The translations under genes were made by a program, and so were the position numbers. A stretch of 64,000 nt of DNA from Chryseobacterium sp. (GTDB lineage Bacteria; Bacteroidota; Bacteroidia; Flavobacteriales; Weeksellaceae), in contig JBCNMJ010000001.1 in the NCBI GenBank assembly GCA_039594975.1, positions 20,402 to 84,401 on the forward strand. Reading direction: 5' to 3'. Numbering within the stretch: position 1 is the stretch's first letter; each line of letters starts with the position of its first letter. This document shows, one piece after another, positions 19,227 through 19,446 of this stretch. Under the pieces are notes generated by a model. The model did no database searches. It was not told where the DNA came from and saw nothing but the letters and a program-made list of their open reading frames with translations.

Positions 19227-19446
19227 ATAAGGTAAAAGGCGAAAAAGGTGTGCTCTTTTCAGAGCGCCGCTCTTACCCGATTTGGGCAGTGAGCCGGCAA
19301 TTCTACATCTGCGAGAGACTTGCGCTTTTTTACAAAAACTTTTGCCAAGTTGGTTTTCAACCCAACCTCACTAGTTCGGTCGCCCGAATTTCGCTACCTT
19401 AGGACCGTTATAGTTACGAAGTAAACGTTTTCTACGGCACTTATCT
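19227..19446 (-). ncRNA. Y-RNA-like unit C with a 23S rRNA-like insert
   Basis: GAUAAG/CUUAUC closing stem, GUGCCGU...UUACUUCG motif, then 33 nt identical to the conserved 23S H69-H71 sequence. Confidence 0.75.

Follow-up and report, generated by a model that had tools for sequence, protein, structure and literature searches.

A Y-RNA-like gene beside rsr in Chryseobacterium with a payload resembling the H69–H71 corner of 23S ribosomal RNA

Within a 64,000-nucleotide stretch of a Chryseobacterium sp. genome (contig JBCNMJ010000001.1, positions 20,402 to 84,401; ‘the window’ in what follows) lies a gene for a structured RNA, unit U4 (19224–19447, minus strand, 224 nt), which forms part of an array of similar units beside rsr, the bacterial orthologue of Ro60, and which contains 33 nt identical to 23S ribosomal RNA (rRNA). 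U4 looks like a Y RNA with an rRNA-mimicking module, a class previously undescribed. Genes for bacterial Y RNAs lie no more than 4 kb from rsr, in the same orientation, and their products combine a conserved 5' motif, GNCGAAN0-1G, implicated in Ro60 binding, with a tRNA-like module; tRNA enzymes recognise the module of YrlA, and PNPase is tethered to Rsr by Y RNA (Chen et al. 2014; PMC4201824).

The identical segment, CGTAACTATAACGGTCCTAAGGTAGCGAAATTC, occupies 19418–19386 of the minus strand. By blastn it matches annotated 23S rRNA at 100% identity over 33–34 nt in 5426/5426 complete E. coli genomes, and by blastn-short with E = 4e-15, well past chance; in one E. coli 23S copy it is found at 1911–1943, equivalent to 1909–1941 in standard numbering. 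An identity to 23S 1909–1941 had been proposed from the letters of the window by a model (the original prediction), and it is exact. In the Rfam large-subunit (LSU) consensus the 33-mer falls on upper-case letters, which mark high conservation, running from the last two pairs of the H69 5' strand through the H69 loop, the 3' strand, the C-UAA-G turn and GUAGC to G1935 and AAAUUC, and its core is ACGGUCCUAAGGUAGC. H69 takes part in bridge B2a and contacts tRNAs; with the adjoining junction it lies at the subunit interface, the two touching tRNAs, release and recycling factors, and modification enzymes. The first letters of the copy are the CG of a scaffold junction motif, UUACUUCG (19417–19424), the same point at which the payloads of the other units start, again as predicted.

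Outside these ~27–33 nt no sequence is shared with 23S. With the 33-mer removed, the best local (Smith-Waterman) scores of the payload against E. coli 23S (the reference here, rather than a Bacteroidota 23S) are 23, 21 and 18, set against a shuffle null with a median of 20 and a 95th percentile of 25; the flanks just outside the 33-mer differ from true 23S, and the LSU_rRNA_bacteria model gives U4 only 8.9 bits (gathering score 50; E = 0.41), such that U4 is not a 23S gene or pseudogene fragment. When all 446 units from arrays of this kind were compared by blastn-short with a full rrn operon, significance was seen for the U4 class only. The shorter matches of the original prediction fare less well: UCGGGUAAG, read as H71-like, is an exact H71 9-mer, but only GGGUAAG is conserved, and in our model the letters form the end of a variable loop, the 3' strand of hairpin G and a junction; GAUGU..CGGCUCA and GUGAGGUUGGGUU, suggested as matches to the region of the peptidyl transferase centre (PTC), are not aligned to that region, the payload remainder being at chance level; and covariation speaks against the ‘H90-like’ pairing of GUGAG with CUCAC, as most relatives have GCGAG while CUCAC is invariant. 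The proposed parallel between YrlA and an rRNA-mimicking Y RNA thus stands for the H69-to-H70 copy, the link to rsr and the scaffold, and falls for the H71 sequence and the H90/PTC part. We consider it apt, since U4 is Y-type, rsr-linked and has a real, maintained H69-to-H70 copy in two phyla. The roles suggested alongside it, as decoy, as bait or in repair, are speculative.

The first part of the payload is a miniature of the H69–H71 corner of 23S domain IV: an H69-like hairpin, the strand UCCUAAGGUAGCG (1923–1935) and, where 23S has H71, a hairpin with a GNRA cap. The H69-like hairpin, P1 (19405–19419; UUCGU/ACGG stem, loop AACUAUA), is present in the minimum-free-energy folds of several members, and takes its 5' strand from the UUCG of the UUACUUCG motif. 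It is followed by UCCUAAGGUAG (19394–19404), an unpaired strand equal to 23S 1923–1933 that is near-invariant over 33 distinct sequences, and then by a short helix, PX (C-G, G-Y), which closes hairpin A (UUCGG-GCGA-CCGAA; 19369–19393, with direct AGCGA repeats on both sides) and represents the counterpart of G1935:C1962 plus H71. In PX, the counterparts of C1934 and G1935 pair with the YG of the second AGCGA repeat (GC in 22 cases, GU in 8, AU in 1). Hairpin A, closed by the G1935 counterpart, stands in the topological place of the G1935:C1962-closed H71 of the Rfam structure, whose sequence is not reproduced; the LSU alignment, insignificant at 8.9 bits, likewise places P1 on H69 and hairpin A on an H71 shortened from 20 to 6 positions. 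Like 23S H69–H71, U4 has 1909–1941, an H69-type hairpin with loop AACUAUA, C-UAA-G, GUAGC and then a hairpin closed by the G1935 counterpart. Unlike 23S, its H69-type stem has 4 bp with the UUCG of the Y scaffold as 5' strand, its H71 substitute is a freely covarying GNRA-capped stem, the 9-nt bulge of 1936–1944 is not kept, and there is no H67/H68 context.

The payload module between the scaffold ends (~170 nt) is multi-helix. Working onwards from hairpin A, the model contains hairpin B (19348–19367; GUUGG-GUUGAAAA-CCAAC), stem E (UGGCAA/UUGCCG; 19295–19347) around hairpins C (19324–19339) and D (19308–19318) with the conserved joiners GCAAG and UGUAGAA, stem F (GCUC/GAGC) with an inner hairpin G (UGCCC-AAAUC-GGGUA; 19269–19294 in all, including UCGGGUAAG), and hairpin H (19252–19265; GCUCU-GAAA-AGAGC), the length of which differs among relatives. 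It was drawn from divergent members; unit limits come from anchor trimming and a covariance model of 41 pairs (hairpin H lying outside), and pairing statistics from the covariance-model alignment of the 33 distinct sequences. The covariance model has exactly one hit in the window and recovers all members end to end (47–77 bits for those from Verrucomicrobia, 35 bits for the high-GC member), although it is Flavobacteriia-trained and the 3' half of Verrucomicrobial members aligns poorly.

Standard pairs fill 94.8% of cells, as against 87.0 ± 0.4% for shuffled alignments and 32–48% for slid controls; 29 pairs are changed on both sides, compared with 10.5 ± 2.0 after shuffling (0/500 shuffles reach 29); and the covariation score is 0.249, compared with 0.116 shuffled and 0.036–0.074 with partners slid by 1–3 columns. 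Such statistics lean toward the model, because the alignment was fitted to it; the per-helix pattern is still informative. Double-sided changes are seen in 4/5 pairs of hairpin A (its loop GNRA in nearly all members), 4/6 of hairpin B (GUUGG/CCAAC becoming GCCGG/CCGGC; this hairpin is absent from Verrucomicrobial members), 6/6 of stem E (GGCAA/UUGCC, GGUAA/UUACC, GACAA/UUGUC), 6/6 of hairpin C and 7/9 of stem F with hairpin G, where the hairpin G loop is variable; hairpin D accepts insertions. For P1 the count is 0/4, with 97% of cells pairing and one-sided changes that retain pairing (U.G to U-A in locus L105, C-G to U.G in L029). Covariation support for the module fold is thus strong, and the rRNA-like part is kept as sequence, the remainder as structure. 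Two other pairings were rejected: the first RNAalifold model (GYGA with UCGY and a longer stem F), as divergent members favour stem E plus hairpin D instead, and a pseudoknot pairing GGUCC with GGGUU, the loop of hairpin B; this overlaps the hairpin B stem and would involve a hairpin missing in Verrucomicrobia.

Conservation within the genus was followed across 80 rsr loci of Chryseobacterium and Epilithonimonas, taken from at least 555 Rsr-encoding stretches and having Rsr 84–94% identical. The U4 class comprises 17 members by BLAST clustering and is found in 18/81 Chryseobacterium-group genomes by covariance-model search, its units ~90% identical within divergent flanks; the check attached to the original prediction, whether orthologous units keep the insert, has a positive outcome here and in two phyla, with drift in the segment. 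Full 33/33 identity to 23S is kept only in the window and in C. arachidis (the Rsr proteins of which are 94% identical); A1936 is replaced by U in most members of the class and C1914 by A or U in most, while AACGG(U/C)CCUAA(G/A)GUAGC is nearly invariant. Over the 33 distinct sequences the exceptions to UCCUAAGGUAG are L029, where the segment reads GGUUCUGAGG, L018, L014 and L105. Within Chryseobacterium, the 23S-like part and the remainder of the module are equally conserved.

This pattern bears on which enzymes a copy of H69 might imitate. The case for a conserved role as substrate mimic for RluD or RlmH is weakened, since the H69 loop is deleted or substituted in many Chryseobacterium members and the strand that follows it is invariant. 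Mimicry of the RlmD substrate (m5U1939) was rejected, the U1939 context being unconserved outside Flavobacteriia and lost in Verrucomicrobial members, as was a decoy for toxins of the MazF-mt6/mt3 type: the UUCCU motif of H70 is absent, the unit reading UUCGG.

Members also exist well beyond the genus. A metagenome scan with the pattern CTTCG-N(2-9)-AACGGTCCTAAGGTAGC (true 23S has GGCCG in place of CTTCG) returned 21 loci, of which ten are Chryseobacterium-like, nine divergent, one a genuine LSU rRNA and one truncated, the last two being excluded. Among the divergent loci, L083, L087 and L103 are AT-rich and Flavobacteriia-like, L085 has 68% GC, and L084, L096, L098 and L099 have another closing scaffold, CCAGCAGUGAGGAUCAGAG.../...CUCUGCCGNAGUUCUCUGG; the ninth is L089. 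Wherever contigs are long enough, L083, L089, L096 and L098 included, rsr is found on the same strand within about 3 kb of the unit, the encoded protein being 60–63% identical to the window's Rsr in L083 and L089 (63% in L089) and 31–33% in L096 and L098. Relatives of the L096/L098-type Rsr are source-labelled Verrucomicrobiales, Verrucomicrobiae or Chthoniobacterales, and the Verrucomicrobial units lie between genuine tRNA genes in long arrays. Two patterns run against viral contigs gave no matches.

In the nine lineages outside Chryseobacterium, the seven loop positions that the search pattern did not constrain agree with 23S in 59/63 cells, which points to an H69-like hairpin with a selected loop sequence, relaxed in six Chryseobacterium species. 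Identity to 23S falls past GUAGCG (A 7/9, A 5/9, A 6/9, U 2/9), an effect of the covariation in hairpin A. As most metagenome members were ascertained via the core sequence itself, six further Verrucomicrobial rsr loci (L104–L109) were fetched via their proteins. One of them, L105, holds an rsr-linked unit between tRNA-Cys and tRNA-Thr, with three substitutions in the core, two of which keep pairing in the model, and an exact H69 loop. Sibling RNAs in Verrucomicrobia have the same scaffold and UUACUUCG junction and include a tRNA-like one; this marks the scaffold, CUUCG included, as a Y-RNA feature of the whole lineage, and the 23S-like sequence as payload.

In its position and ends, U4 resembles a Y RNA. 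The rsr gene (21107–22624, minus strand) encodes a 505-amino-acid (aa) Ro60 orthologue with TROVE and Ro60 von Willebrand A (vWA) domains (Pfam TROVE E = 2e-29, vWA_Ro60 E = 1e-6), and lies upstream of U4 on the same strand, with 1.66 kb between 21107 and 19447; U4 is accordingly within 4 kb of a Ro60 orthologue, as are the units of L083, L089, L096, L098 and L105. The 5' and 3' ends, CAGAUAAG...CUUAUCUG, pair into a stem broken by an internal loop. Stem 1 is formed by CAGAUAAG (19440–19447) with 19224–19231, and stem 2 by 19426–19432 with about 19241–19247; between their 5' strands is GUGCCGUAG (19432–19440), a conserved internal-loop motif common to all 446 array units and the presumed Rsr-binding site, and between their 3' strands (19224–19247; RNAalifold and duplexfold) is a ~7-nt loop, CGCCUUUUAC. 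This arrangement of stem 1, 4-nt/7-nt internal loop and stem 2 is found by the same programs in every lineage, stem 1 covarying freely (CAAAUAAG/CUUAUUUG, AAUAGGCG/CGCCUAUU, UAUUAAGAG/CUCUUAAUA and CGCGCGGG/CCCGCGCG). U4 folds better than 200/200 shuffles (z = -3.1).

The array itself (18043–20209, minus strand) has six long units and two short ones, the latter recognised by eye, with U4 as the fourth long unit. Its siblings, all on the minus strand, are U1 (19959–19829), the short unit S2 (about 19823–19752), U2 (19728–19583; YrlA, Rfam RF02553, at 33.9 bits and E = 2.8e-5, below the 69-bit threshold), U3 (19577–19460), the tRNA-like U5 (18342–18188) and U6 (18182–18043), the last two beyond an inserted open reading frame (ORF) of 279 aa. 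Units share the 5' motif (A/G)GUGYCGU...UUACUUCG and a complementary 3' end, several siblings have T-arm- or D-arm-like elements, and UUACUUCG is found in every Chryseobacterium unit class. Loci of the Chryseobacterium group hold 0–10 units, 443/446 of them on the rsr strand, the payloads of which cluster into few orthologous classes whose presence or absence differs between species; the literature searched contained no description of arrays of up to 10 units.

Evidence for a transcript comes from three sequencing runs. In X24, whose label we guessed to be RNA, a 206-nt contig covers 19233–19436 at a depth of 23.7, compared with 2.5 for the neighbouring unit and ~2370 for a 23S word; a ratio to the 23S word of roughly 1/100 is more in keeping with RNA than with DNA. 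In X26 and X27, both freshwater metatranscriptomes, contigs of 471–736 nt extend across the unit of a ~10%-diverged relative. Of the raw RNA reads of a further run, X40, none could be placed. A sigma-70 promoter scan, using a model that is not of the Bacteroidota promoter type, gave no excess over shuffles. U4 is probably expressed.

On balance, we incline to the reading that U4 represents an undescribed class of Y RNA, the rRNA look-alike module of which serves as a molecular mimic for a 23S-recognising factor that is either tethered or titrated. The stem / internal-loop / stem scaffold, shared with the tRNA-like siblings, would be the site of Rsr binding, and the look-alike module would be bound by a protein whose usual target is this corner of 23S: candidates are a toxin directed at rRNA or a factor for rRNA modification, assembly or quality control. 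Once bound, such a protein might be tethered to Rsr and its exonuclease partners, or else titrated away from ribosomes. A shared ligand is the simplest reading, because two molecules that are otherwise unrelated show constraint on the same ~27 nt, eleven of which are unpaired in the module; we infer from this that a factor for this 23S corner may also bind the Y RNA. Tethering or titration would parallel the handling of YrlA by tRNA enzymes and the tethering of PNPase by Y RNA. At the Verrucomicrobial rsr loci, tRNA arrays, RtcB (two loci), HNH genes (four) and toxin-antitoxin-type and Fic genes (one) fit, if only circumstantially, a setting of RNA damage and surveillance. A broader proposal, to which we give distinctly less credence, is that a panel of translation-RNA look-alikes, made up of tRNA-like Y RNAs or whole tRNA arrays together with the H69–H71 miniature, is encoded at Rsr loci of at least two phyla. 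The rRNA look-alike would then act either as bait or sentinel for nucleases and modifying toxins whose point of attack on the ribosome is the subunit interface, or in place of H69 to dock the Rsr ribonucleoprotein (RNP) on 30S subunits or tRNAs.

Several observations weigh against mimicry by a Y RNA. The published GNCGAAN0-1G motif is seen only as a variant, GYCGUAG (5/6 positions) in Flavobacteriia and GCAGUGAGG in Verrucomicrobia, each conserved within its lineage. The rRNA-like part is short (~27–33 nt), the rest of the module having no significant similarity to E. coli 23S, and P1 is without compensatory changes, its 5' strand being the scaffold motif common to all Y classes. C1914 is retained in only 6/24 members, and the H69-like loop has deletions of 1–3 nt in six Chryseobacterium species, so that any loop-dependent function must be dispensable there. 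The patchy distribution (18/81 Chryseobacterium-group genomes, 1/6 Verrucomicrobial loci) makes this an accessory RNA; no protein gene was found to co-occur with U4, the two unannotated ORFs of the array region included; the use of the core sequence in ascertaining most metagenome members has been mentioned; and the transcript support consists of assembled contigs, partly with a guessed RNA label and with ends and strand undefined.

The same observations lend themselves to other accounts. U4 could be a relic, or an exaptation, in which an ancestral Y RNA captured a fragment of the 23S gene or RNA that is now kept as an element of the fold of the module (P1, PX, perhaps also tertiary contacts), with no rRNA-recognising partner and in a role unrelated to rRNA, such as binding PNPase or another effector. 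We regard this as unlikely, though not negligible: the segment is partly base-paired inside the module (P1 3' strand, PX), the remainder is equally conserved within Chryseobacterium despite having no rRNA similarity, and the unit persists where the H69 loop is shortened; yet the 11-nt UCCUAAGGUAG and the 7-nt loop, unpaired in the model, are identical to 23S across phyla when ordinary helices have all changed. That the H69 loop contains the best-conserved free positions in the deep lineages suggests a ribosome binder instead, the H69-like hairpin docking as H69 itself does, with the 30S decoding centre (bridge B2a) or tRNA D-stems as its site, and either bringing Rsr to free 30S subunits or tRNAs for surveillance or blocking subunit joining under stress; the unit's place amid tRNA look-alikes and real tRNA arrays would suit this, and human Y RNA hY3 is known to bind and inhibit ribosomes (PMC13501136). 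That said, H69 in its 50S context is poorly imitated by a 4-bp hairpin on its own, six Chryseobacterium species have a degraded loop, and invariance is greatest in a strand outside bridge B2a, the one that follows the hairpin; we consider direct ribosome binding improbable.

Least dependent on Rsr would be a structured RNA co-transcribed with tRNAs or tRNA-like RNAs and freed by tRNA-processing enzymes, which merely shares the rsr neighbourhood. The location of the Verrucomicrobial unit between genuine tRNA genes in long arrays agrees with this, and its two GNRA tetraloops and multi-helix junction do resemble autonomous structured RNAs. The closing scaffold is, however, shared with sibling Y RNAs (GUGYCGUAG...UUACUUCG in Flavobacteriia, GCAGUGAGG...UUACUUCG in Verrucomicrobiota), and every locus long enough to tell has rsr in the same orientation, no more than about 3 kb away, which makes such independence quite improbable. 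There remains the concern, raised in the original prediction, of a chimeric assembly, here joined through the 33-nt repeat, together with the equally trivial options of a decayed 23S pseudogene fragment or a copied homing-endonuclease target; the segment presumably includes an I-CeuI-type site, and short-read contigs do break inside the 33-mer. In the plant-metagenome run X1, which contains 96% of array-region words, contigs match both halves of U4 with 0 differences and end inside the 33-mer because 23S has the same 31-mers at about 10,000x depth, the loose ends there being canonical 23S flanks. The architecture recurs in 17 other independent genome assemblies, one a complete genome, and collapse of a repeat is impossible since members whose segments are 1–4 substitutions or deletions away from 23S have the same junctions. 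Add to this flanks unlike 23S, an LSU score far below threshold, closing stems that pair across the join and, in Chryseobacterium, no associated endonuclease or intron ORF, and the chance of an artefact becomes very slight.

Compared with YrlA and other bacterial Y RNAs (RF02553; PMC4201824), U4 is similarly linked to rsr on the same strand, has an end stem with an internal-loop motif and occurs with several paralogues per locus; as in YrlA, the apical module imitates a translation RNA, and siblings in the array are tRNA-like. Unlike YrlA, it is without T-arm or D-arm, imitates part of 23S domain IV, measures ~220 nt, roughly double the length, and adopts a seven-helix fold of its own; no match of U4 to YrlA or tRNA models was obtained even at E <= 10. 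The arrays differ from published Y RNAs in their motif (GYCGUAG / UUACUUCG as opposed to GNCGAAN0-1G) and in reaching 10 units. Rfam 15 has no family matching U4. GOLLD and ROOL are large structured noncoding RNAs associated with tRNA genes; U4-type RNA is likewise multi-helix and found among tRNA genes, but is much smaller, is tied to rsr and a Y scaffold, and has no Rfam match to either family. Verrucomicrobial unit loci sometimes hold RtcB and so, like the Rsr-RtcB repair locus rsr-yrlBA-rtcBA of Salmonella (PMC7790460), combine translation RNAs with repair or surveillance proteins, whereas no RtcB, RtcA or RtcR is found near the window's rsr. Full-text searches of the Y RNA and Ro60 literature (tRNA-mimic work, a phage Ro60 study, the human Y3–ribosome study) found no description of an rRNA-like bacterial Y RNA.

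The Verrucomicrobial loci L104–L109 have a common organisation of their own, with 4–20 same-strand tRNA genes directly upstream of rsr in 6/6 (e.g. L108:5001-8401, L106:6361-9557), an HNH_4 nuclease gene after rsr in four and RtcB adjacent in two; L108 also has Fic and zeta-toxin/ParD genes. This tRNA-array / Rsr / HNH arrangement looks like a recurrent Verrucomicrobial module, and no description of tRNA arrays directly upstream of rsr with an HNH_4 gene downstream was found in the literature searched.

Other payloads of the Chryseobacterium arrays deserve mention. U6 (class C2, 47 loci) has a T-arm-like hairpin, CCGGUUCGACUCCGG, and a conserved GGGGAGGAAUAAUG with the look of a Shine-Dalgarno sequence plus AUG, and could be another kind of mimic (mRNA-like or tmRNA-like). 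Class C4 (L001:9192-9322, plus strand, and 13 other loci; no copy in the window) reads GAGGCAGAAUUUAGAC...GUGCAAUUUCCUGAAUAACAG..., is not tRNA-like and shows neither rRNA similarity nor a known family. The D-arm-like part of class C1 (L023 unit 0, L003 unit 1) holds GAAUGGCGUAAUG, equal to 23S 1970–1982, of which U1 has 10/13 nt; this 13-mer was rejected as an rRNA copy, since with multiple testing taken into account it does not exceed chance (E = 0.007 per query), though its place in 23S, only ~30 nt beyond the stretch copied in U4, is curious. The 279-aa ORF between U4 and U5 (18349–19188, minus strand) has homologues in the arrays of 17/80 loci regardless of U4 and a sub-threshold match only, to SMI1/KNR4 (SUKH-1, immunity-protein-like; E = 0.0075); in RNA-labelled runs of relatives the array lacks it (skips of 879–899 nt). 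Between rsr and the array, a 230-aa ORF (20252–20944, minus strand) with no Pfam family, and no homologue in the other 100 loci, looks like a strain-specific insertion.

Further afield, a Flavo-1 RNA motif (Rfam RF01705, 63.6 bits; 20971–21059, plus strand) lies just downstream of rsr on the opposite strand. On the rsr strand are two tandem RNase_T/DEDD-type 3'-5' exonuclease genes (182 and 191 aa; 29354–30503, minus), ~7 kb upstream of rsr, and 11 clustered tRNA genes (33734–35996, minus), ~11 kb upstream. Downstream of the array, 8480–17354 (minus strand) encodes a 1602-aa DUF3686 ‘ATPase involved in DNA repair’ plus AAA protein, a 669-aa protein without family, PspA/IM30 and a CesT/YbjN-like protein, genes which may form a stress or defence-type cluster.

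The mimicry known for bacterial Y RNAs is that of tRNA. If our reading of U4 is correct, a second, phylum-spanning class mimics a universally conserved piece of 23S, which would make translation-RNA mimicry a general design principle of Ro60 RNPs. The ligand is short and defined (~27 nt) and comes with natural loss-of-loop variants, and could reveal what Rsr RNPs are tethered to, while the rsr-adjacent tRNA arrays and the HNH and RtcB genes put the RNA in a context of RNA damage and repair. Were the broader proposal of a panel of look-alikes also to be true, surveillance by Ro60 and Y RNA would be tied directly to the integrity of the ribosome.

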